Notes under the pieces: generated by a model | Told to the model about the DNA's origin: nothing | The model's input: the letters and a program-made list of their open reading frames with translations, nothing else | The model's database searches: none | Part shown: in pieces, positions 3,264 through 20,118 of the stretch | How the letters are laid out: every line of letters begins with the position of its first letter | Position numbering within the stretch: position 1 is the first letter of the stretch | Made by a program: the position numbers and the translations under genes | Assembly: GCA_963699255.1 (NCBI GenBank) | Contig: OY969425.1 | Span: 660,001-692,000 of the forward strand | Length of the DNA stretch: 32,000 nucleotides | Direction: 5' to 3' | Source: an uncultured bacterium | Lineage (GTDB): Bacteria; Margulisbacteria; WOR-1; CAVSGV01

Positions 3264-5710
3264 GGGTCGTTCCTTCCTATCTTATCGGTCTTCCTGACCG
3301 ATGATGATCTGCTCACGCGCGTCGGCTCTCCGTAAGTGACATTGCGCTTCCTCTGGAGGAGCTCCTCCTCGCCTTCCCTCACCACCTGGGCCTTGTATAT
3401 CACGCTGATGATCTCCTGCCTTGCGGCATCCATCATGTCCTGGAACATCTTGTAACCCTCTATCTTGTATTCAATGAGAGGATCCCTCTGCCCCCAGGCG
3501 CGCAGTCCTATTCCCTCGCGCAGGACATCCATGTTGTGGAGATGCTCTATCCACTTCGCGTCGATCTCCTTAAGCATAACAAGCTTCTCTATCTCACGCA
3601 TAGCATCACTGCCGACGAACTTCTCTTTTGCCTCATAAGCGTCCTTCAACATGCTTTCAAGGGCGCTCTTTATCCCGGCTCTGTCCTTATAGGCCGCAAG
3701 GCCGCTCATGTCCGCCGGCAGGAGTTCAGAAACGGCGGTCTTAAGCCCCTCGATGTCCGAAAGGGGATCTTTTTCCGGAACGAAAGCGTCCAGATAATTC
3801 TTGACCAGCTGATCGATCATCTCGAAGGCCTTTTGCTTCAGGTCCCTTCCCTCCAGGATCCTGCGCCGCAAAGCGTATATCGATTCCCTCTGCTTGTTCA
3901 TGACGTCGTCATATTCAAGGACCTGTTTCCTTATGTTAAAGTGATATTGCTCCACTTTCTTCTGCGCGTTCTCTATCGCCCTAGTTATAAGCGGATGTTC
4001 TATCGGCGTATTCTCCTCCATACCCATTCTTTCCATTATCCCGGCGATCCTGTCGCTGCCGAAAAGCTTCATCAGGTCGTCCTCAAGCGCCACATAAAAT
4101 CTGGACGAGCCCGGGTCGCCCTGACGGCCGCTTCGGCCTCTCAGCTGGTTGTCTATCCTGCGCGATTCGTGCCGCTCCGTCCCGATTATGTAAAGTCCCC
4201 CGGACTGGGCCACCCCTTCGCCAAGGACGATATCGGTGCCGCGGCCCGCCATGTTCGTTGCAATAGTGACGGCGCCCTTCTGCCCGGCTTTCGCGACGAT
4301 CTCCGCTTCCATTTCGTGATGCTTCGCGTTCAAAACGTTGTGGGGGATCCCCCGCCTTTTCAATATATCGCTTATATGTTCGGAATTCTCTATCGAGACG
4401 GTGCCGACAAGGACCGGCTGCCCGTTCTTATGGAGGCTTGCTATCTCGTCGGCGACGTTATTGAACTTTTCCTTCCTTGTCTTGTATATCACGTCATTCA
4501 GGTCTTTCCTTATCATGCGCTTGTAGGTGGGGACCTCCAGGACCTCCAGCTTGTATATTTTCCAGAACTCGCCCTCTTCGGTCTTCGCGGTCCCCGTCAT
4601 ACCGGCAAGCTTTTTGTACATCCTGAAATAATTCTGGAAAGTTATGGTTGCGAGCGTCTGGCTTTCTTCCTGGATGGTGACGTTCTCCTTGGCTTCTATC
4701 GCCTGATGAAGCCCGTCGCTGTAACGCCTGCCGATCATGAGGCGTCCGGTGAATTCATCCACTATGATCACCTCGCCGTCCTTGACGACATAATCGATGT
4801 CGCCCCTGTAAAGGTGCCACGCCTTAAGGGATTGGAGTATCTGGTGGGCTATTTCCATGTTCGCTATGTCAAAGAGGCTTTCAACTCCGAGGAATTTTTC
4901 CGCTTTCTTTGTCCCTGCTTCTGTCAGGACGGCGTTCTTCGTCTTTTCGTCAACGGTGAAATCCGCGCCTTTTGAAAGTTTTTTCGCGATATCGTTCCCC
5001 TTATAATATCCCTCCAGGCTTTCCTCCACCATTCCCGATATGATAAGAGGCGTCCTTGCTTCGTCGATCAAAATGCTGTCCACTTCGTCAACGATCGCGT
5101 AATTAACGTCCCTCTGAACGCACTGTTCTATGGTGACGGCCATGTTATCCCTTAAATAATCAAAGCCGAATTCGTTGTTGGTGCCGAAAGTAATGTCCGC
5201 GCCGTAAGCCGCTTTCCGCTCCGCATAGTCCATGTCGTGCTGGATAAGCCCGACCTCCAGGCCGAGGAACTTGTATATAGGGCCCATCCACTCGCTGTCG
5301 CGTTTCGCGAGGTAATCATTGACCGTTACTATGTGCACGCCCTTTTCTTCGAGAGCGTTAAGATATACGGGCAGTGTCGCGACAAGGGTTTTTCCTTCGC
5401 CCGTCTTCATCTCGGAGATCTTGCCCTGATGGAGTACTATGCCGCCCACAAGCTGAACGTCGAAGTGGCGAAGTCCTGTTGTCCTGACGGATGCCTCCCG
5501 AACAGCGGCAAAAGCCTCCGGAAGGATACTGTCCAGTGACTCGCCTTTTTTGAGCCTCCCTTTGAACTCGGATGTCTTGGCCTTAAGCTGTTCGTCGCTC
5601 AGAGCCTTCATTTTCGCTTCGAGGCTGTTTATCTTAAGGACGAGCGGCTGGATCTTCTCCAGTTTTTTTTCATCTGTCTCGCTCAATAAATTTATAAGCC
5701 ATTTGAACAT
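3209..5710 (-). CDS. secA: Preprotein translocase ATPase SecA
   Basis: 833 aa. Walker A is MKTGEGKTL, the protein shows SecA-wide similarity, and the C-terminal zinc motif is [14 protein letters not shown]. Confidence 0.98.
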
Positions 5711-8768: not shown

Positions 8769-9734
8769 ATGACAGCATTTAAAGATCTTGGACTGGTGAA
8801 CACAAGGGAGATGTTCAAGAAAGCCGTTGACGGTGAGTACGCGATCCCCGCCTACAATTTCAATAACATGGAGCAGCTGCAGGCGATCATGATGGCCTGC
8901 GCCGAGACAAGCTCGCCGGTCATAATCCAGGTCTCTTCGGCGCGAGAAAGTACGCGAACGCCGACAATGCTGCGCTACATGGCGCAGGGCGCGGTGGAGA
9001 TGACAAGGAAAGACCTTAAATCGAACATCCCCATATGCCTGCACCTTGACCACGGCGATACCTTTGAGCTCTGTGTCTCCTGCATAGAATACGGATTTTC
9101 ATCAGTGATGATCGACGGAAGCCACCTTCCCTATGAGGAAAATGTCGCGCTGACAAAGAAGGTCGTGGAATACGCGCACAAATATGATGTGACCGTGGAG
9201 GGAGAGCTCGGGGTGCTCGCCGGGATCGAAGACGCGGTGAAAGCCGAGAAACACACCTACACCCAGCCCGAAGAGGTCCAGGACTTTGTCAAGAAGACAG
9301 GGGTTGATTCTCTGGCTATATCAATAGGAACATCGCACGGCGCGTATAAGTTCAAGCCGGGCACAAAGCCGGAGATCAGGCTGGACATTCTTCACGTAAT
9401 AGAAAAAAGGATCCCCGGTTTCCCGATAGTCCTTCACGGCTCTTCTTCCGTACCACAGGATTTGGTGAAGCAGATCAATTCGAACGGCGGGAAACTGAAA
9501 GACGCCATCGGCATACCCGAAACCCAGCTGAGGGAAGCGGCAAAGTCCGCCGTATGCAAGATAAACATCGATTCTGACGGCCGGCTGGCCATGACCGCGG
9601 CGATAAGAAAGGTCTTTGTCGAAAAACCGGAGGAGTTCGACCCCAGGAAATATCTAGGTCCGGCGAGGGACGCGCTGAAAGAACTTTACAAGCACAAAAA
9701 TATCAATGTCCTCGGTTCCGCGGGAAAAGCTTAG
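8769..9734 (+). CDS. fba: Class II fructose-bisphosphate aldolase
   Basis: Contains LHLDHG, GELG and IVLHGSSS, with class II ketose-bisphosphate aldolase similarity throughout. The RBS is GGAAGGAG. Confidence 0.94.
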   Translation: MTAFKDLGLVNTREMFKKAVDGEYAIPAYNFNNMEQLQAIMMACAETSSPVIIQVSSARESTRTPTMLRYMAQGAVEMTRKDLKSNIPICLHLDHGDTFELCVSCIEYGFSSVMIDGSHLPYEENVALTKKVVEYAHKYDVTVEGELGVLAGIEDAVKAEKHTYTQPEEVQDFVKKTGVDSLAISIGTSHGAYKFKPGTKPEIRLDILHVIEKRIPGFPIVLHGSSSVPQDLVKQINSNGGKLKDAIGIPETQLREAAKSAVCKINIDSDGRLAMTAAIRKVFVEKPEEFDPRKYLGPARDALKELYKHKNINVLGSAGKA

Positions 9735-13821: not shown

Positions 13822-14395
13822 CTACGTCCTCTTCAGGAACATCTTCGAAAATTCCCACTGTATGGGTCGGGACGGCTTTTATAGCGTCCACAACATCCAT
13901 GCCGTCCGTCACTTTCCCGAATACGCAGTAGCCGAAACCCTGCTGGGTGTTGTCCCTGTGGTCAAGGAACGGGTTATCGACGACGTTTATGAAGAACTGC
14001 GCCGTGCCGCTGTCCACAACGTTCGTCCTGGCCATAGCCAGCGTGCCTTTCGTGTTAGAGAGGCCGTTGCCCGCCTCGTTCTTTATAGGGGTAAGCGTCA
14101 GCTTCTCAACCATTCCCTTTTGGAATCCGCCCCCCTGTATCATGAAGCCCGGAATGACCCTGTGGAATATGGTCCCGTCATAGAATCCCGAATTGACGTA
14201 AGACAGGAAGTTCGCGACCGTCACCGGCGCTTTGTCCGGATACAGCTCGAGCGTAATATTGCCTTTTGAGGTCTCCATCATAACTTTCGGGTTGCTGTTC
14301 ATTGTTTCTCCTTCCTTTGCCGGAGGCGTGCTCATAGCGAAGCACAGGCCTGATATCAAAACACACACTGCAATTGCCGCGAACATTTTTTTCAT
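13796..14395 (-). CDS. ppi: Cyclophilin-type peptidyl-prolyl cis-trans isomerase, secreted
   Basis: The signal peptide is [20 protein letters not shown], and [14 protein letters not shown] is present. The 3' end overlaps the convergent 13135-13821 gene by 26 nt. Confidence 0.93.
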
Positions 14396-14420
14396 TTGGT
14401 TCACCCTTTCCTTCTTCACT

Positions 14421-14449
14421 ATTCTACTATAAAGGAACGGACATGGCAA
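14421..14449 (-). promoter_or_regulatory. Sigma70-like promoter for the cyclophilin gene
   Basis: The minus strand reads TTGCCA-17 nt-TAGAAT. The -35 hexamer is the terminal TGGCAA of the hairpin element at 14443-14594. Confidence 0.5.
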
Positions 14450-14594
14450 TAAAGGCGATTTAGGGCAAAATAAGGCAACAGAAGACACAAGGCTTATGGC
14501 TCAGGGTAAAAGCAACTATTCTTTTGCCCTTAGCCATGTATCTTACGCCCTATCCCCTCCATCTCTTCATTTGCCTTCAATCGCCTTCAATATC
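14443..14594. repeat. Empty copy of the GGCGAT-unit hairpin element
   Basis: The left arm ATGGCAATAAAGGCGATTTAGGGCAAAATAAGG...GGCTCAGGGTAAAAGC, a 7-nt loop (AACTATT), and the right arm CTTTTGCCCTTAGCC...TTGCCTTCAATCGCCTTCAATAT. The arms resemble those at 16849-17358 and 17458-17606. Confidence 0.8.
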
Positions 14595-14628
14595 TTTTTA
14601 TTTGTCTGCTTTCAAACTTTCAATCAGC

Positions 14629-14656
14629 TTGAACTATCCCCCTCCGGGCGTATAAT
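14629..14656 (+). promoter_or_regulatory. Sigma70-like promoter for the beta-propeller gene
   Basis: TTGAAC (14629-14634), 16 nt, TATAAT (14651-14656). Confidence 0.6.
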
Positions 14657-14698
14657 TCCTTTTGCTTTGATCCTTCCCCATTAAAAGGAGTGTGCGAC

Positions 14699-15760
14699 AT
14701 GAAAAACAGGCAGTTTATTCCGGTCATAGTAGCTCTCCTAATCCTCTGTTCAATGGCTTTCCTTTACGGCTGCGGATCTAATACTTCAAGCAACGGAGGT
14801 TCGGTCGGCAGCCCGTGGATATATGTCGGCGCATCAAATGACAACGCCATCTCAATAATCGACGGTTCGACCAATACTCTCGCGGGAACGATAGAACTTT
14901 CGCCAAGAAAGCCGTATCATATTGCCGCTTCACCGGACGGGAAGCATCTTTATGTTTCCACGGACAGCCCAGAGGTCGTCGTGATAGATACGGCCACTAA
15001 TAAGATATCCGGCCTTATCACCACTGACGCCGATACGCAGTCTTACGGCATGGCGGTTTCCGTGAACGCCGCGCTCCTTTATTTTTCGAGATTTAACGAT
15101 AACAAGCTTGTAAAATCATATCTGAACAGCAATCCTGTAACCTCTGAAACCGTGGTCACCGCCGCTACGCCGTACGGGATGAGCCTGGCCCATAATGACG
15201 GAATAAGTATCGTGTGCGAACCATCGAACCTTGAATGTTTCGACAATTCTCTGTTTATGTCTGACGCCAGCGTAAGTAACTTGGGCTCCAATCTGTATAC
15301 TGTGGCCGTGAATAACGGATTGGCATTTGTCCCGCGATACGCGACGGGTGACGTTGCGATAGTTGATGTGGCGGACATCGTTAATCCAACCGCCGAGGTA
15401 ACTGTCAGCCTGATAACGCCAGAAAGCGCGGCTACTTCATTTTTTGGGATAGTCTCCATTCCTGGAAAGAACAAGCTTTATGTAAGCCAGTACAAGCCTG
15501 CCGGCACATTAAATATAATTGACGCATCTTCTACTCCGACATTTGAATCCAAGGTGATCACAGGGGGGGCGTTCACCATGTCAAATCCGACCTATATGAC
15601 CGCGACCGCTGACGGCAAATATGTATATGTTTATGATACTTCCACGATACACCACTCTCAGATCTGTGTTGTTGATGCCGCCGCGGATCAGGTCGTGCAA
15701 ACGATACCTGTAAATGTGGGCGATGATTTTGACAACAATCCGGTAATTATCTATAAGTAA
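14699..15760 (+). CDS. YVTN-family beta-propeller repeat lipoprotein
   Basis: ATG 14699 follows AAGGAG. The lipobox is FLYGC. The repeats SPDGKHLYVS..VVVIDTATNK, KLYVSQ..LNIIDASS and DGKYVYVYD..VVDAAADQVV are present. Confidence 0.85.
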   Translation: MKNRQFIPVIVALLILCSMAFLYGCGSNTSSNGGSVGSPWIYVGASNDNAISIIDGSTNTLAGTIELSPRKPYHIAASPDGKHLYVSTDSPEVVVIDTATNKISGLITTDADTQSYGMAVSVNAALLYFSRFNDNKLVKSYLNSNPVTSETVVTAATPYGMSLAHNDGISIVCEPSNLECFDNSLFMSDASVSNLGSNLYTVAVNNGLAFVPRYATGDVAIVDVADIVNPTAEVTVSLITPESAATSFFGIVSIPGKNKLYVSQYKPAGTLNIIDASSTPTFESKVITGGAFTMSNPTYMTATADGKYVYVYDTSTIHHSQICVVDAAADQVVQTIPVNVGDDFDNNPVIIYK

Positions 15761-15779
15761 CTGAAGCGTTCGGTAAAAG

Positions 15780-15816
15780 CCCGGTTTTATTCTTTCCGAG
15801 TAAAGCCGGGTTTTTT
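15780..15816 (+). terminator. Rho-independent terminator
   Basis: CCCGGTTTT (15780-15788) pairs with AAAGCCGGG (15802-15810) and is followed by TTTTTT. Confidence 0.7.
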
Positions 15817-15830
15817 GTTGGTTTTCCGAT

Positions 15831-16235
15831 CTAGATCGGAAGCGATATTTTGGACACGCCTATTTTTGAGGCGTCATCGATCCTGTTAAGCACTTCATCC
15901 GCCTTGCCGGGATGGGCGTTCAAATAAACGGACAGCTGCAATATTCCGGTTTGATTGGAGATATCGATCGTCATGGACTTTTTTTCGGCGGACCTTTCAA
16001 GCGGCAGATGGATCCTGGAAGAGCCCTTGCTTGCCGCGGTCGCCATCAATTTCGCTATTTTGTCCCCGCTGTTGGGATGCGTGTTCATGAAGTCGCTTAT
16101 TTTCAAGGCGTCCGAGCTGTTGAAAAAGTCCACCTGTTCGGAATTCGCGAGAGGCATATTGCTGCTGGCGGCTAACGGATTAATGGCCTGGATACCCGGT
16201 TCATCGGAGTCATTCCTCTTATCGTCAAAGCCCAT
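15831..16235 (-). CDS. Hypothetical protein with two internal repeats
   Basis: The probable start is ATG 16235 (MGFDDKRND). The repeats are FMNTHPNSGDKIAKLMATAASKGSSRIHLPL and YLNAHPGKADEVLNRIDDASKIGVSKISLPI. I recognise no family. Confidence 0.55.
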   Translation of the reverse strand: MGFDDKRNDSDEPGIQAINPLAASSNMPLANSEQVDFFNSSDALKISDFMNTHPNSGDKIAKLMATAASKGSSRIHLPLERSAEKKSMTIDISNQTGILQLSVYLNAHPGKADEVLNRIDDASKIGVSKISLPI

Positions 16236-16355
16236 ATCAGCACATCCTTTCTTAACAGGGGATATTATAGGCCTTAATAAGACAGAAGGCAAAACATGAA
16301 GGCGGGACATGAAGGCGATCGAGGAAGACAAAAGGCATTGGAATTCGGGAAACTT

Positions 16356-16469
16356 GGGATACGGTTTAGAGATATAGGAAAACAGGAATGAGGAAAACAG
16401 GAGTTCTTTTCTTCCTCTTTCCCCTTTTTCCTCTTTCCCTAAACTCAGTCCCTATATTCCTTTATCCCC
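16356..16469. repeat. Purine-rich / pyrimidine-rich imperfect palindrome
   Basis: GGGATACGGTTTAGAGATATAGGAAAACAGGAATGAGGAAAACAGGAG faces CTTCCTCTTTCCCCTTTTTCCTCTTTCCCTAAACTCAGTCCCTATATTCCTTTATCCCC. Pairing is only partly colinear. Confidence 0.5.
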
Positions 16470-16487
16470 ATTTCTCTAATATACCCC

Positions 16488-16848
16488 CTACTTCAAGAAT
16501 CCGATGTTCTTGACCGTTTTATCCGGTATTTCCATCAATTCGTTTATCGCGTCAAAAACCACCTTGAACTTGCCGTCGTATTTCTTTTCCATTTCCTCGA
16601 TCTTCCGCTTCAATTCCGCATGGCTGGAAAGTAATCGTCTTAACCTTGTGAATGTCCTCATGATCTGGATATTGACCTGAACGGCTCTTTCGCTGTTGAG
16701 CACTGAAGACAGCATTGCCACTCCTTGTTCAGTAAAGGCATAAGGCGAGAAGCGCCTCTTGCTGTATTTTGCGGTCACAAATTGTGACCGCAAATATTCA
16801 GACTCTTGCTCTGTCAACTGGAACATAAAATCATCAGGAAATCTCCGA
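16488..16848 (-). pseudogene. 5'-truncated ORF6N (KilA-N-related) domain gene
   Basis: [66 protein letters not shown] matches the C-terminal two thirds of ORF6N proteins. The roughly 45 N-terminal residues are missing, and homology stops at the hairpin-cassette terminus. Upstream codons of the track ORF are read out of the repeat arm. Confidence 0.7.
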
Positions 16849-17358
16849 ATGGCAATAAAGGCGATTGAGGGCGATAAAGGGCGATAGAAGGCACAGGGCT
16901 TATGGCTTAGGGCTGGCACTTGCGTTTTAAGGAATAAATAAGGCGGTTGAATAAGTATAAAGTTTTGATAGTTAGTCCTTCAAAATGATCAAAAACATCT
17001 TTTGATACGTACTTTTTCAAATATACATGCCGCGACCAATTTCCCAATTCCGCTAGAGATCTGCGGCTAAAGCCCAAAAATCTAATGTATTCCTTTATAC
17101 TGCCCGAATAATATCCTTCTACAAAGTTTGCGCTGACTGATGTTACCGCCCGATCAATTTGGTCTCTTAAACTAAAACAATTCTTCGGCACCAGCGGCAT
17201 TATTTCACGATAAAGATATGTTTCTATTTTTTCAATATTGCCCCATACGATCATTTTTTTGTGTCCCTGCATGCAATTGCCCCCTTCTTCCCGCCTTACG
17301 CCTTGAGCCTCAAGCCCTAACACTCCCCTATATCGCCTTCTTTTGCCCTAATTGCCAT
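16849..17358. mobile_element. IVS-like inverted-repeat cassette carrying a four-helix-bundle gene
   Basis: The perfect terminal inverted repeat is ATGGCAAT (16849-16856) / ATTGCCAT (17351-17358). The roughly 70-nt imperfectly complementary arms belong to the same family as 14443-14594 and 17458-17606. The single enclosed gene is 16907-17272. Mobility is inferred, not shown. Confidence 0.55.
16907..17272 (-). CDS. Four-helix-bundle protein (23S rRNA intervening-sequence protein / Avd family)
   Basis: [79 protein letters not shown] fits the family pattern (W..a......FP..e...l..Qi.RAa.Si..NiaEG......ke...Fl..a.gSl.El). The last codons extend into the left arm. Confidence 0.85.
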
Positions 17359-17457
17359 ACCTTAACCAGCAATTTTTATGCCAAGGGAAATAAACATAGA
17401 AAGATCGAATATGCAGCAGCTTTCGACAGATGGGTGTCGAGAAGGATGACATGAGAA

Positions 17458-17606
17458 AGGGCAATTAAGGCGATTGATGGCGATACAAGGTGGTGGAAGG
17501 CATATGGCTAAAGGCTCATGGCAAAAGGAAATTTGTTTCTTGCCTTTTGTCTTATATCGTAAGCCCTATATGCCCTCTTTTGCCTTCAATCGCCATAAAT
17601 CGCCCT
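17458..17606. repeat. Second empty copy of the GGCGAT-unit hairpin element
   Basis: The left arm AGGGCAATTAAGGCGATTGATGGCGATACAAGG...ATGGCAAAAGG, an 11-nt loop, and the right arm TTGCCTTTTGTC...TTGCCTTCAATCGCCATAAATCGCCCT. The reverse complement of the right arm starts AGGGCGATTTATGGCGATTGAAGGC. Confidence 0.8.
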
Positions 17607-18089
17607 TTATTTCTGCGCATTTCTTAAATACAAGAAGACTAATATTACTATAAGTATTGGAAGCAATAAATCGTTCAGGTATAGTATCGGCCCCGCGTTA
17701 TAAACGGCGGTATTGCCGGATGTGATTATATCTCGGATATGGCCTGTCCCCGCCCCTATTCCGAAGATTCCGCCTATTATTGCGATTGCGAGCCAGTAAG
17801 TGCCGCGGAACCAGAAGCTAAGGAGCGCGGCGATGCCGATGGCTATGTTGGCGACGCCGACTTCGTACTGGAACGGGCTTCCGGGAGCCCAGCCGATGCC
17901 GCGGGCGATGGCGGGTCCATTGAAGATGTGCTCAAGTCCAGCCATTGTCTGGCCGATACCGACGGCAATGATGAAGTAATCAAGAAGGATTATCTCGAGT
18001 ATGTTTGATATATTGCGAGTCTTCCTCGTCAGCGCGATATGGATGAGAATAATAAGTATCGTGATTGTCAGCATTATTATTGGGAACAT
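17607..18089 (-). CDS. Integral membrane protein (about 4 TM segments), function unknown
   Basis: Hydrophobic segments are FPIIMLTITILIILIHIAL, ILLDYFIIAVGIG, VANIAIGIAALLSFWF, WLAIAIIGGIFGIGAG and LLLPILIVILVFLYL. Confidence 0.75.
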   Translation of the reverse strand: MFPIIMLTITILIILIHIALTRKTRNISNILEIILLDYFIIAVGIGQTMAGLEHIFNGPAIARGIGWAPGSPFQYEVGVANIAIGIAALLSFWFRGTYWLAIAIIGGIFGIGAGTGHIRDIITSGNTAVYNAGPILYLNDLLLPILIVILVFLYLRNAQK

Positions 18090-18172
18090 GGGGGGATTAT
18101 AGCAAAGAAAATAATAGTTTAATAATAAAAAGTGGTATTTTCAGAATAAGAACGTGGTAGAATATTTTAATT

Positions 18173-19153
18173 GTGATTAAACAAAGAAATATTATAAACG
18201 AACTCACGAGAAGGCTATCAGAAGTAGAAACTTTTTCAAATCATCCAATCACTTCCAAAAAGACTGCCGAAGCATTCTTTTCAGGAATTGCTGATTATAT
18301 GAATTTTATCTTAACAAACCATAAGTTGAAGGGCTATTGTCAGCAATTAGAGAAAAAGCAAAAGGGACTAACCGTTAGTAAGGAATTATCAAAAGAAGAT
18401 GATTCGATGATAAAACAACTCAAGAAGTACTCCGATGATATTGAAGGAATAATTAAAGCGAATAATATAACTAACCTTCCCTATGACAAAATTATACCTC
18501 CTGGATATAGTGGATCAATATCTGCAGATCAAGCTCTTTCCCTCACTTATTGGAGAGCAAATTCATATGTTACTCGTAAAACTCATGTTGCAGGAGATGG
18601 CTATTCTGGAATAAGAGAGTTGAGGTATTTGACTGATGAACTGATGCTAAAAATTGGAAAAACACCTGAACTGGAAAAGATTTACAAAGATTGTCATAAA
18701 TTAGTTGAAAATTATGATAATAAATTAAAAACAAAATCACGTCTTGAGGCCTTCTTAAGACATGATGCCTACAAATCACTTTTAGAAGTATGGGACTATT
18801 TCTATAATGGGGAAAATTGGAAGAGTAACCTAAATTTCATAATAATGTATGGCTCATGTTTAGATTCAAATTCATCATCCGCGCTAAAGACTGAGGATGC
18901 TCAAAAGATTAATCGTGCAAAAGATGAATATTTATCATCATTACATAAAATGCACAATTACCTTTCGGATAAATACGATGAAACAAATATAGTATTTGAC
19001 ATACTCTCTCCAGCGATAAAAAGCTTTGCAACAACACTTGTTGGCCTTATTCTTATTGGGGTATTACTTGCAGCTCTTAATCTATTAAATTTTAAGCTGC
19101 CCATCAAACTAATAAATGCCGCAATGAAATACATTGCATTAGTAAAACAATGA
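18173..19153 (+). CDS. Low-GC orphan protein, helical, with a C-terminal transmembrane anchor
   Basis: A 326-aa ORF with a GTG start and no obvious Shine-Dalgarno. The C-terminal segment is FATTLVGLILIGVLLAALNLL. Base composition is far below that of the flanks. I recognise no family. Confidence 0.6.
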   Translation: MIKQRNIINELTRRLSEVETFSNHPITSKKTAEAFFSGIADYMNFILTNHKLKGYCQQLEKKQKGLTVSKELSKEDDSMIKQLKKYSDDIEGIIKANNITNLPYDKIIPPGYSGSISADQALSLTYWRANSYVTRKTHVAGDGYSGIRELRYLTDELMLKIGKTPELEKIYKDCHKLVENYDNKLKTKSRLEAFLRHDAYKSLLEVWDYFYNGENWKSNLNFIIMYGSCLDSNSSSALKTEDAQKINRAKDEYLSSLHKMHNYLSDKYDETNIVFDILSPAIKSFATTLVGLILIGVLLAALNLLNFKLPIKLINAAMKYIALVKQ

Positions 19154-19677: not shown

Positions 19678-20118
19678 ATGAAAAGCAGAGGATTTACCCT
19701 TATCGAGCTCCTTATAGTAATGGCGGTCATAGCGATCCTTATCGGCATAGCGCTGCCCAGCTTCAGGGGAATGCAGCAGGAAGCCAGGAAGACAAGGGCC
19801 CAGGGCGATGTAAGGACCATAAAGATGGCGGTGGAGGCATATTACATGGACCACCAGAACACCTATCCCGCCGAAGCAAATTACCAGGCGACCCTTCAGG
19901 CTTCCGTCCCGCAGATACTTACCAGCACCCTGTATGATCCTTTTGGCGCCACTTCCACGACGCAGTATCTGTATTCTCTGGACACTCACAACCCCGCCAC
20001 GGCAAATTATTATATTATTTCTTCGGTCAGCCCATCTGGTGTTGCTACCGCTACCGTTAGCACGACCGGAACCATAACCGCATCGTCCGATGCGATCTAC
20101 GCTTCGAACGGCCATTGA
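19678..20118 (+). CDS. Prepilin-type N-terminal cleavage/methylation domain protein (GspG / type IV pilin-like), copy 1
   Basis: The class III signal is MKSRG/FTLIELLIVMAVIAILIGIALPSF, followed by a GspG-like AQGDVRTIKMAVEAYYMD...YP. Confidence 0.9.
   Translation: MKSRGFTLIELLIVMAVIAILIGIALPSFRGMQQEARKTRAQGDVRTIKMAVEAYYMDHQNTYPAEANYQATLQASVPQILTSTLYDPFGATSTTQYLYSLDTHNPATANYYIISSVSPSGVATATVSTTGTITASSDAIYASNGH

Follow-up and report, generated by a model that had tools for sequence, protein, structure and literature searches.

The 32,000-nucleotide stretch of DNA analyzed here (the window) contains a chromosomal cassette that resembles a 23S rRNA intervening sequence (IVS), in which a gene of the four-helix-bundle (4HB) family lies between two complementary arms made of a short repeated motif, among protein-coding genes. 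With confidence that falls just short of even, we favor a model in which this is a resident chromosomal element of the IVS type, whose transcript would fold into a panhandle and whose repeats are probably read by its own 4HB protein, by RNase III, or by both. We know of no function assigned in about 30 years to the proteins encoded by rRNA IVSs, and the model gives a testable hypothesis, recognition of repeats by a protein on panhandle RNA, with a defined substrate. The first-pass annotation knew of no description of such an element; we found none in the literature either, and as far as could be found, the repeat-armed 4HB cassette has so far gone undescribed. The cassette comprises the following features.

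16907 to 17272, minus strand: four-helix-bundle protein gene (121 aa, pI 9.7).
17285 to 17358, minus strand: 5' arm, which is the 5' UTR on the gene's strand, with about 8 to 9 purine-rich units of ~10 nt.
16849 to 16925, minus strand: 3' arm, with units complementary to the repeat (ATCGCC/TTGCC every ~10 nt) and ATTGCCAT at its end.
17368 to 17383, minus strand: sigma-54-type -24/-12 promoter-like motif TGGCATAAAAATTGCT, from which transcription is predicted to begin at or near the first base of the 5' arm.
17384 to 17440, minus strand: conserved spacer upstream of the promoter-like motif, common to the related contig L001 (alignment A2).

The ends of the cassette carry a perfect 8-nt inverted repeat, ATGGCAAT at 16849-16856 and ATTGCCAT at 17351-17358, and its arms of ~70 nt consist of GGCGAT/GGCAAT-type units at 10-nt spacing, according to the repeat families computed in the window. 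The unit consensus is RGGCRAT. The 5' arm runs through ATGGCAAT, TAGGGCAAA, AGAAGGCGAT, and further units to a Shine-Dalgarno-like GAAGAAGGGGG at its end. Downstream lies the reverse-complement array, which takes in the final ~6 codons of the 4HB gene, the sole gene between the arms. The pattern GGCGAT-N4-GGCGAT-N4-GGC, with three or fewer mismatches, has 13 matches in the window against 1.36 expected; 12 lie in or beside the arms and related hairpins (14454-14595, 16314-16336, and 16860-17614), and the thirteenth, with three mismatches, is inside a beta-propeller gene (15408-15430). The unit was originally drawn at 16849-17358, and its arms, gene, and ends are real, but that boundary is too short, as the element reaches at least 17383 with the promoter-like motif. 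The flanking genes encode DUF6790 and ORF6N. Rfam at gathering thresholds finds no family in the window, LSU rRNA included, and at E ≤ 1 the interval 14000-18200 yields just two chance miRNA-like matches, both on the 16356-16452 hairpin. With no rRNA in the window and protein-coding neighbors, an insertion in 23S rRNA helix 25 or 45 is ruled out.

Profile searches and predicted fold agree in placing the gene in the IVS-protein/Avd family, as had been suggested. The 121-aa protein matches PF05635 (E = 3e-16, 59.9 bits; curated cutoff, 33.8) and TIGR02436 (E = 1.5e-16, 60.5 bits; curated cutoff, 24), and its AlphaFold monomer model (pLDDT 96.2) has four long helices. The top Foldseek matches of the model are 2GSC, which is Xanthomonas campestris XCC0516 and the best of them (TM 0.89/0.94, rmsd 1.1 Å), 2RLD, and Avd 4DWL; TM scores against Avd 4DWL and 8UB7-type RNP structures are 0.78 to 0.87, and a profile search with the protein also retrieves 2GSC and 2RLD. 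Homologues in alignment A1 are all basic (pI 9.15 to 10.09), and a dN/dS of 0.045 between the gene and its counterpart in L001 shows strong purifying selection on the protein.

A stem with an ORF in its loop is the arrangement of ORF-bearing 23S rRNA IVSs (PMC4990558), and the cassette has it as first proposed, yet among protein-coding genes. As in the IVSs of Leptospira, Coxiella, Xanthomonas, and Brucella, the ORF belongs to the PF05635/TIGR02436 family, and its complementary flanks make a stem whose loop holds it. The short tandem purine-rich repeats upstream of the 4HB gene also have a counterpart in the Coxiella IVS, where tandem heptamers (GACAGAT, three to four copies) precede the ORF, and the stem of ORF-bearing rRNA IVSs is cut by RNase III (PMC4990558). 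Unlike an IVS, the cassette stands between protein-coding genes, often inside operons; its arms, of 70 to 190 nt against a Coxiella stem of 28 bp, repeat a ~10-nt motif and have several pairing registers; and the Margulisbacteria cassette has its own -24/-12 promoter-like motif. Excision by RNase III is shown for IVSs and is a prediction for the cassette. The short IVSs of Salmonella and Campylobacter, which have no ORF, are the gene-less counterpart. With Avd, the cassette protein shares a homologous four-helix-bundle fold and a basic character. The relation of IVS proteins to Avd, a protein of diversity-generating retroelements (DGRs), is only structural. Avd forms a positively charged barrel of five subunits, which binds a stem-loop in RNA, and in DGRs the 3' end of avd and the downstream spacer RNA form duplexes (bioRxiv 10.1101/2023.10.23.563531). 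In contrast to DGRs, the cassette has no reverse transcriptase or template/variable repeat pair in the window, and none is evident in related loci; its repeats are periodic arrays flanking the gene itself. A DGR was rejected as an identity for the cassette, since no RT domain was found in the 20 scanned window ORFs of at least 150 aa or in the ORFs around the cassette, and the direct repeats found are arm units only.

The same succession of purine-repeat arm, 4HB gene, and complementary arm is found at most of 37 homologue loci from at least eight named lineages (Margulisiibacteriota/WOR-1/Saganbacteria, WOR-3, Patescibacteria, Chloroflexi, KSB1, TA06, Planctomycetes, and a gammaproteobacterium), with inverted-repeat z scores of up to 28 and arm duplex energies of -37 to -150 kcal/mol. 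Across ~270 kb of these loci, detected arm pairs bracket or directly follow 4HB genes, the single exception being a weak extra pair in locus L028. In the Mrp operons of WOR-3, genes of a second 4HB subfamily are arranged in the same way, with GGGTAAA-type units (GGCT-type in L034). The cassettes mostly share the orientation of neighboring genes (the upstream gene in 28 of 34 loci, p = 2e-4; the downstream gene in 26 of 35, p = 0.006), which speaks for the resident-cassette model. None of the 20 related loci scanned contains rRNA. A metagenome scan with the 4HB protein for orthologous loci returned one contig, which was nonsyntenic and without arms. Across many phyla, and outside rRNA, genes of at least two 4HB subfamilies normally reside in the gene-in-hairpin layout known from IVSs.

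The arms of these cassettes are conserved arrays of a ~10-nt motif, not arbitrary stems. Compared with L001, the 5' arm is 80% and the 3' arm 81% identical, whereas 54% of synonymous sites in the adjacent ORF differ, so by this measure the arms are conserved far above synonymous sites. The GGC core is kept across phyla. A period of 10 nt, which is not a codon multiple, characterizes 32 of 75 arms beside 4HB genes, and 49 of 75 have a period of 9 to 11 nt. The complementarity of the arms, in turn, is for the most part not specific to each copy but follows from having one periodic motif in two orientations: arms from different phyla pair strongly with each other, and the second-best pairing register scores almost as high as the best. 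Of the stem that had been proposed between the arms, what holds is a pair of complementary termini with an ORF in the loop, not a precisely maintained helix.

How the arms pair also bears on a rather unlikely alternative, in which the cassette is purely an IVS-like RNA module: only the double-stranded stem would matter, an RNase III site would excise or process the RNA, and the repeats would be incidental, from slippage for example, with no protein to read them. The layout is identical to that of ORF-bearing rRNA IVSs cut by RNase III, the predicted duplexes are very stable, and cassettes lie inside operons in the orientation of their neighbors, all of which speaks for such a module. A copy-specific pairing signal is present but weak. 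Arms from one locus pair better on average than arms from different loci (-63.6 versus -50.7 kcal/mol), and in 11 of 33 loci no arm pairs better than the own partner, but the two arms in the window rank only 19th of 33 as mutual partners. Covariation among four related copies is modest, with 91.4% of cells paired versus 87.6% in shuffles and seven pairs changed on both sides; between the window and L001, however, there are no compensatory changes and 11 pairs are broken, the minimum-energy fold of L001 takes another register, and chimeric window/L001 arms fold equally well or better. No G:U bias is detected on the sense strand (119 G:U-type versus 135 A:C-type mismatches, p = 0.35), nor any significant bias between sense and antisense duplex energies (p = 0.12), so that nothing in the sequence marks the sense RNA as the selected molecule, which counts against the resident-cassette model too. 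The near equality of registers also tells against a stem-only module, as do the GGC core shared across phyla and the excess of arm identity over synonymous identity, because a helix alone needs neither.

The cassette in the window has a candidate promoter of its own. The motif TGGCATAAAAATTGCT agrees with the sigma-54 consensus TGGCAC-N5-TTGCW in its GG/GC spacing and its fixed position upstream of genes, and it is the single match to TGGC-N7-TTGCW in the 32-kb window. In 10 related loci the -24/-12 motif, with consensus TGGCaatAaaATTGCTGG, precedes the start codon of the 4HB gene by 94 to 178 nt; the ORF6N genes of L070 and L071 also have it, and L069 has the near-match CGGC-N7-TTGCT. Such gene-upstream positions account for 12 of 18 matches in 680 kb of distinct-locus strands, and the spacer and promoter region is 76% identical to L001, compared with 61% for neighboring ORF6N coding DNA. 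Sequence comparison thus shows that Margulisbacteria retain the motif ahead of 4HB and ORF6N genes, just beyond the outer end of the 5' arm. No sigma-70-like site was found upstream of the 4HB gene. RpoN-box and GAFTGA motifs are absent from the 434 kb of sequence searched, and a literature search found nothing on sigma-54 in Margulisbacteria. An inverted, weaker copy of the motif, AAACTTGCAT, lies outside some 3' arms; we dropped its reading as a promoter because the -24 spacing is lost in several loci.

According to the resident-cassette model, transcription would start from the sigma-54-type motif in Margulisbacteria and come from operon read-through in other phyla. The RNA in the window would have its 5' end at or near the start of the 5' arm, and pairing of the two arrays would close a long, imperfect panhandle that tolerates shifts of register and holds the ORF in its loop. 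That the arms are kept as motif arrays and not pair by pair, and that a second 4HB subfamily has a different unit, suggests that a protein reads the repeats. The candidate reader is the cassette's own 4HB protein, positively charged and presumably pentameric, which is the most economical choice because its relative Avd binds an RNA stem-loop; such binding would give autoregulation or an RNP. RNase III cleavage of the stem is likely, in a secondary role. In TRAP- and CsrA-type regulation, a ring or dimer protein reads periodic short RNA motifs. The cassette would resemble these systems, if the hypothetical binding occurs, in pairing a small oligomeric protein with a regularly spaced array of short motifs in a leader RNA, but the folds are unrelated and the cassette also has a complementary array downstream. 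A bolder extension, which we consider doubtful, is that IVS/Avd-family 4HB proteins are sequence-specific readers of ~10-nt arrays bracketing their own genes, forming a particle of ring protein and panhandle RNA (or DNA), with ORF-bearing rRNA IVSs and the DGR Avd-RNA complex as specialized offshoots of one widespread and so far unrecognized element, found in at least eight named lineages and able to reside in ordinary operons.

Further copies of the arms surround the cassette, so that four arm-bearing units lie within 3.2 kb, a copy count taken from 32 kb of the genome.

17458 to 17606, no strand assigned: gene-less hairpin of the cassette-arm family, with an 8-nt loop, directly 3' of the DUF6790 stop codon.
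14443 to 14594, no strand assigned: gene-less hairpin of the cassette-arm family, between divergent PPIase and beta-propeller genes.
16488 to 16848, minus strand: 5'-truncated ORF6N gene, a remnant of a neighboring cassette, covering PF10543 profile positions 36-86 only.
16346 to 16482, no strand assigned: inner hairpin of another repeat type (GGGA/GGAAAA units), just downstream of ORF6N.
16283 to 16342, no strand assigned: solo arm, GGC-type on the plus strand and GCC-type on the gene's strand.

Loaded and empty forms do stand side by side, and the two gene-less copies fold back on themselves with 8-nt loops, much as first described. In repeat family D2, with 14443-14506 as the reference arm, the loaded cassette's arm 16849-16912 is 84% identical and hairpin 17458-17606 is 72% identical. 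Neither gene-less hairpin was matched in stability by any of 200 shuffles (17458-17606: -58 to -60 kcal/mol, z = -5.2/-6.4; 14443-14594: -49 kcal/mol on the plus and -65 on the minus strand, z = -5.4/-7.6), and the inner hairpin reaches -46/-53 kcal/mol (z = -2.5/-4.2). The whole cassette folds at -145 kcal/mol and stands out from shuffles on the plus strand (z = -4.9) but not on the gene's sense strand (z = -1.2). This sense-strand result counts against the resident-cassette model, as do the empty hairpins, which have no adjacent 4HB gene. Predicted divergent promoters flank hairpin 14443-14594, which may therefore not be transcribed; a DNA-level role fits it better.

The loaded copy was thought to end exactly where homology to a truncated ORF6N gene begins. 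The match does begin at profile position 36, with the residue right after 16849, but the cassette was not inserted into ORF6N. Related loci L001 and L068 have a full ORF6N gene preceded by its own GGC-type arm, and the window lacks 222 alignment columns there; on this comparison the abrupt junction is a deletion of ~220 nt that took ORF6N's own 5' arm and about 47 codons, and the cassette adjoins the truncated gene because of it. The solo arm (repeat families D1 and D3, with the pattern match at 16314-16336) is by the same comparison the 3' arm left over from the truncated ORF6N cassette, its partner being present in L001 and L068 and deleted in the window. Three units, of which one is truncated, would then make up the locus 16283-17606 as a short array, and the gene-less hairpins and solo arm may be decayed or deleted derivatives of such cassettes.

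This neighborhood also invites the explanation, in our judgment quite unlikely, that the cassette is a mobile DNA element: a recombinase whose gene lies elsewhere would bind repeated sites in the arms, which would be subterminal arrays in inverted orientation, with the gene-less hairpins as MITE-like derivatives and the 4HB gene as cargo or an accessory factor. Subterminal arrays of binding sites are found at the ends of Tn7, Mu, and Ac/Ds. The perfect terminal inverted repeat with its subterminal repeats, gene-less copies within 3.2 kb with near-identical outer ends (14443-14464 versus 16849-16870), the deletion endpoint at an arm terminus, and a symmetric mismatch pattern that fits double-stranded DNA or action on both strands are all in keeping with it. 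So are the many homologues on ~1-kb contigs, which are common for repeats. However, no transposase, integrase, or reverse transcriptase was found in the 20 window ORFs of at least 150 aa that were scanned or in ORFs around the cassette, no relatives of the 4HB protein were found in viral and plasmid collections, and no target-site duplication is visible at the window copies. Integron attC sites were rejected as well: the core sites GTTRRRY/RYYYAAC are missing, the hairpin ends are ATGGCAAT/ATTGCCAT, and the scanned ORFs encode no integrase.

The best case for movement comes from L003 and L007, where orthologous neighbors are 55 to 57% identical and the 4HB cassettes 75% identical; relative to an acyltransferase gene, the two cassettes lie on opposite sides and point in opposite directions. 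The L003 copy is flanked by a 22-bp direct repeat that restores both gene ends, although a duplication of 22 bp is atypical for transposition. Among the 36 loci searched, L003 alone has direct repeats flanking the whole cassette; those flagged in L011, L015, L021, and L028 are arm duplications. Positions are otherwise stable: identical 4HB proteins always occur in one genomic context, on up to 24 contigs, arms are without polymorphism across 18 contigs of two proteins, and WOR-3 genomes have the cassette at one orthologous operon position. Of the suggestion that the cassette is mobile or recombinogenic, the L003/L007 relocation survives, and the evidence for mobility is thin. The gene-less forms do resemble MITEs and the Correia, ERIC, REP, and BIME elements in being intergenic hairpins of ~150 nt with terminal inverted repeats and outward-facing -35-like boxes at their ends. 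Some small palindromic elements, such as Correia, are RNase III substrates. The cassette and its gene-less forms differ from these families in their 10-nt periodic substructure, in having a loaded form with a conserved nontransposase gene, and in showing no target-site duplications and no high copy number evident so far.

That low-complexity purine/pyrimidine tracts or palindromic misassemblies produced the pattern is extremely improbable: the comparison sequences are mostly metagenome assemblies and purine-rich and pyrimidine-rich tracts pair trivially, but the cassette recurs in assemblies that different pipelines produced independently (L001 from JGI, L002 and L068 from ENA) and in curated complete MAGs, composition-preserving shuffles lack such folding or inverted-repeat scores, and the 10-nt periodicity and motif are specific.

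The repeat arms also matter in practice. They add false N-terminal extensions to called ORFs, may break metagenome assemblies, and provide neighboring genes with -35-like boxes.

The cassette at 16849-17358, a four-helix-bundle (4HB) gene between two repeat arms, belongs to a region that reads on the minus strand, from the DUF6790 gene to the 166-aa ORF, as a short array of elements.

Elements of the array in minus-strand order
17606 to 17458, minus strand: gene-less hairpin, first element
About 80 nt, between that hairpin and the motif: conserved spacer
17383 to 17368, minus strand: -24/-12-type motif
After the motif: 5' arm, 4HB gene (ORF 16907-17272, minus strand, 121 aa), 3' arm
16848 to 16488, minus strand: 5'-truncated ORF6N gene
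16482 to 16346, downstream of ORF6N: inner hairpin of a different repeat type
16342 to 16283: solo complementary arm, last element

As the first-pass annotation described, the cassette ends in a perfect inverted repeat (ATGGCAAT, 16849-16856; ATTGCCAT, 17351-17358), and its arms are about 70 nt of GGCGAT/GGCAAT-type units at a spacing of 10 nt (repeat family D1). A three-unit pattern with at most 3 mismatches matched 13 times in the window, compared to 1.36 expected; 12 of these 13 matches lie within or adjoin arms and hairpins (14454-17614), and the other (15408-15430) is inside a beta-propeller gene. The remaining window is ordinary bacterial chromosome (SecA, HPF, TPI, FBA, PFK, LigA, TruB, IF-2, and NusA), and a scan of 20 window ORFs of at least 150 aa turned up no integrase, transposase, or reverse transcriptase. 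The ORF at 19678-20118 (+) opens with MKSRGFTLIELLIVMAVIAILIGIALP, which reads as a typical prepilin-type N-terminal cleavage/methylation signal.

The 4HB product passes the curated thresholds of both PF05635 and TIGR02436, bearing out its family assignment, but the longer, GTG-started ORF proposed earlier extends into an arm and is replaced here by 16907-17272. The predicted structure has four long helices (pLDDT 96) and superposes best on Xanthomonas XCC0516 (2GSC; TM 0.89-0.94, rmsd 1.1 A), as well as on Bacteroides BT_0352 (2RLD) and the diversity-generating retroelement (DGR) protein Avd (4DWL, 8UB7-type RNP structures). The protein is basic (pI 9.7), as are all aligned homologues (31/31; pI 9.15-10.09). 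Compared to the 93%-identical homologue on the related contig L001, dN/dS is 0.045, with differences at 54% of synonymous sites; from this we conclude that the gene is functional and under selection. In contrast to the decay reported for the Coxiella ORF in a 23S rRNA intervening sequence (IVS) (PMC4990558), it shows no decay. Much of the closest-homologue set sits on contigs roughly 1 kb long, consistent with repeat arms breaking short-read assemblies. Many of the annotated products exceed the 121-aa core by 10-70 aa, the extra N-terminal length apparently being stop-free purine arms read as coding.

A homologue search covering one genome per species yielded 37 loci of this 4HB subfamily, with nearly all comparison data coming from metagenome assemblies and the source genome represented by 32 kb. 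The nearest homologues (50-59% identity) belong to Margulisiibacteriota/WOR-1/Saganbacteria, and further loci occur in WOR-3, Patescibacteria, Chloroflexi, KSB1, TA06, Stahlbacteria, Planctomycetes, and one gammaproteobacterium. At most loci the 170 nt upstream are GGC-rich and the 170 nt downstream GCC-rich; complementarity of these flanks is well above shuffles (z up to 28), with predicted arm duplexes of -37 to -150 kcal/mol. Detected arm pairs bracket or directly follow 4HB genes, except for one weak extra pair at L028. Of 75 arms, 32 have a dominant period of 10 nt, which is not a multiple of codon length, and 49 have one of 9-11 nt. The gene shares the orientation of its upstream neighbor at 28/34 loci (p=2e-4) and of its downstream neighbor at 26/35 (p=0.006), and gaps are often tiny, which points to a position inside operons. 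The location outside rRNA holds more widely, as 0 of 20 loci scanned contain rRNA; viral and plasmid collections yielded no relatives of the protein.

The same layout recurs with other repeat units. A second 4HB subfamily in WOR-3 lies between Mrp antiporter genes and carries GGGTAAA-type units (GGCT-type in L034). In four genomes its cassette, which encodes a distinct PF05635-like protein between arms of ~10-nt repeats, is about 1.2 kb from the first, between Mrp/Mnh-like subunit genes (L025 5268-5928, L027 3197-3797, L034 4675-5286, L046 5232-5834). One Margulisbacteria ORF6N+4HB pair has GAGTTA-type units.

One explanation of the arms is a stem-only RNase III module, which we consider unlikely. 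rRNA IVSs are excised by RNase III (PMC4990558), and the gene-less copies at 14443-14594 and 17458-17606 fold stably (-49 to -65 kcal/mol, z -5.2 to -7.6, no shuffle equaling them). Folding of the entire cassette gave about -145 kcal/mol on both strands, which stood out clearly from shuffles on the plus strand (z -4.9) but not on the gene's sense strand (z -1.2). Wobble-type mismatches showed no strand bias (119 G:U-type versus 135 A:C-type, p=0.35), and sense and antisense duplex energies did not differ (p=0.12). The two arms of a locus match at about 23/30 in their best 30-nt register, about 22/30 in a second, and about 23/30 with the best arm from another locus; the window's own arms rank only 19th of 33 as partners. 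Compared to L001 there is no compensatory change and 11 predicted pairs are broken; L001 folds optimally in a different register, and chimeric arms fold equally well or better. Even arms from unrelated phyla pair, at -50.7 kcal/mol on average. These tests argue against a conventional helix conserved pair by pair. A copy-specific layer of pairing does exist: own-arm duplexes average -63.6 kcal/mol, in 11 of 33 loci an arm's best-ranked partner is its own, and in four related copies 91.4% of cells are paired (shuffles, 87.6%) and both sides have changed in 7 pairs.

The arms are 80-81% identical to those of L001 and the spacer plus promoter region 76%, against 61% for neighboring ORF6N DNA and differences at 54% of the synonymous sites in the adjacent ORF. 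We conclude that the arms are oriented-motif arrays under constraint; base pairing follows automatically from this arrangement and tolerates changes of register.

The window contains a single TGGC-N7-TTGCW match, TGGCATAAAAATTGCT (17368-17383, minus strand), a promoter-like motif that agrees with the sigma-54 -24/-12 consensus. Ten related Margulisbacteria loci have the motif (consensus TGGCaatAaaATTGCTGG) at the outer 5'-arm edge, 94-178 nt ahead of the 4HB start codon, and it recurs ~25-50 nt upstream of two Saganbacteria/Margulisbacteria ORF6N genes (L070 ~2937-2952, TGGCATCCAAATTGCT; L071 ~2961-2976, TGGCATGGTTTTTGCA), with a near-match in L069 (~2958-2973, CGGCAAGATAATTGCT). Across 680 kb of distinct-locus strands the pattern has 18 matches, 12 of them at these 4HB and ORF6N positions. 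Assigned solely by consensus matches, small ORF6N and 4HB genes of Saganbacteria/Margulisbacteria appear to share a sigma-54-type promoter; given the usual -24/-12 geometry, transcription would start near the first base of the 5' arm. No sigma-70-like site was predicted upstream of the window's 4HB gene. In WOR-3 and other phyla the motif is absent and the arm begins directly after the upstream gene, implying read-through transcription.

Outer ends of a hairpin and an arm (TTGCCA, TTGCCT) form -35-like boxes (14449-14421 and 16292-16264, minus strand), each with TAGAAT or TATAAT at a spacing of 17 nt. The boxes point away from the units, to the PPIase gene and the 166-aa ORF; such units may supply hybrid promoters to neighboring genes. 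A conserved AAACTTGCAT (reverse-strand reading) lies outside the downstream arm in L007, L012, L014, L017, L020, and L041 and at the gene-less junction of L003. Its sequence is similar to the -12 half of the motif upstream, with the correctly spaced GG missing in several loci.

The first-pass annotation had noted the sharp ORF6N boundary. In L001, L002, and L068 the same cassette is followed by 12 nt, another arm of GGC type, and an ORF6N gene of full length. Relative to these contigs 222 alignment columns are absent from the window, which makes the boundary a deletion endpoint, not an insertion site. Lost are the cassette's outermost 12-13 nt at that end, the ORF6N 5' arm, and ~47 codons, with AT microhomology at the junction; the solo arm at 16283-16342 is the orphaned partner of the deleted arm.

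Evidence that the cassette is mobile is thin: one relocation favors it, but positions are otherwise stable. Two genomes (L003, L007) have acyltransferase and 100-aa genes that are orthologous (55-57% identical), and their 4HB cassettes (75% identical) sit one on each side of the acyltransferase gene, inverted relative to each other. In L003 an insert of ~735 bp (the cassette plus ~140 nt) lies between 22-bp direct repeats, AGATCATGAGACGCGTATTTTA (2664-2685 and 3404-3425; reverse-complement coordinates 4911-4932 and 5646-5667), which duplicate the overlapping stop/start (ATGA) of two neighboring genes, so that both are intact. No direct repeat surrounds the whole cassette at the other 35 loci searched, identical proteins, on up to 24 contigs, have one genomic context and invariant arms, and the operon position of the cassette is the same in four WOR-3 genomes. 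A mobile element acting at the DNA level, with subterminal binding sites, seems quite improbable, the best arguments for a DNA-level role being the hairpin at 14443-14594, between predicted divergent promoters, and the strand-symmetric mismatches.

We tentatively prefer, at not quite an even chance, a composite of transcription, panhandle RNA, and a repeat-reading protein. The unit would be transcribed from the -24/-12 motif in the window and by read-through elsewhere, and its RNA would fold into a long, imperfect panhandle whose loop holds the ORF, like rRNA IVSs. A protein would read the periodic repeats, the most economical candidate being the cassette's own basic, putatively ring-forming 4HB protein, because the 4HB relative Avd binds an RNA stem-loop (bioRxiv 10.1101/2023.10.23.563531) and the other 4HB subfamily has another repeat unit. 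Avd also adjoins duplexes of sequences flanking its partner RNA (bioRxiv 10.1101/2023.10.23.563531). The cassette would work much as ORF-bearing rRNA IVSs do, but it differs in lying away from their defining 23S rRNA location. DGR and integron cassette identities were rejected, and the cassette is not demonstrable as a transposon. Our incomplete coverage of the IVS/Avd literature contained no description of repeat-armed 4HB cassettes outside rRNA; an earlier one is possible, and we regard the cassette as a variant of IVS-type elements apparently undescribed outside rRNA.

Several loci show further arrangements. A recurrent variant in L007, L011, L020, L028, and L042 has two arms 3' of the 4HB gene, in the order arm, gene, the same arm again, complementary arm. 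The last two form a complete gene-less hairpin, but the complementary arm could pair with either of the two upstream copies, which gives an alternative-pairing geometry. At the junction where L003 has its cassette, L007 has a hairpin of opposite polarity (8964-9080), with a pyrimidine-rich left arm (CCTCACCCCTAACCCC) and a purine-rich right arm. Identical 34-nt palindromes (AAGGCGGCAGTTAAGGAAACTTAGCTGCCGCCTT; L007 11908-11941 and 12524-12557) surround a 114-aa ORF without Pfam hits, possibly another hairpin-bracketed small gene. The L071 ORF6N gene lies between other short periodic repeats (2770-2905 and 3525-3590), CATGGAACA and CAAATAGCAAAT units upstream and CAGTC units of 6-8 nt downstream, the two sets being mutually noncomplementary.
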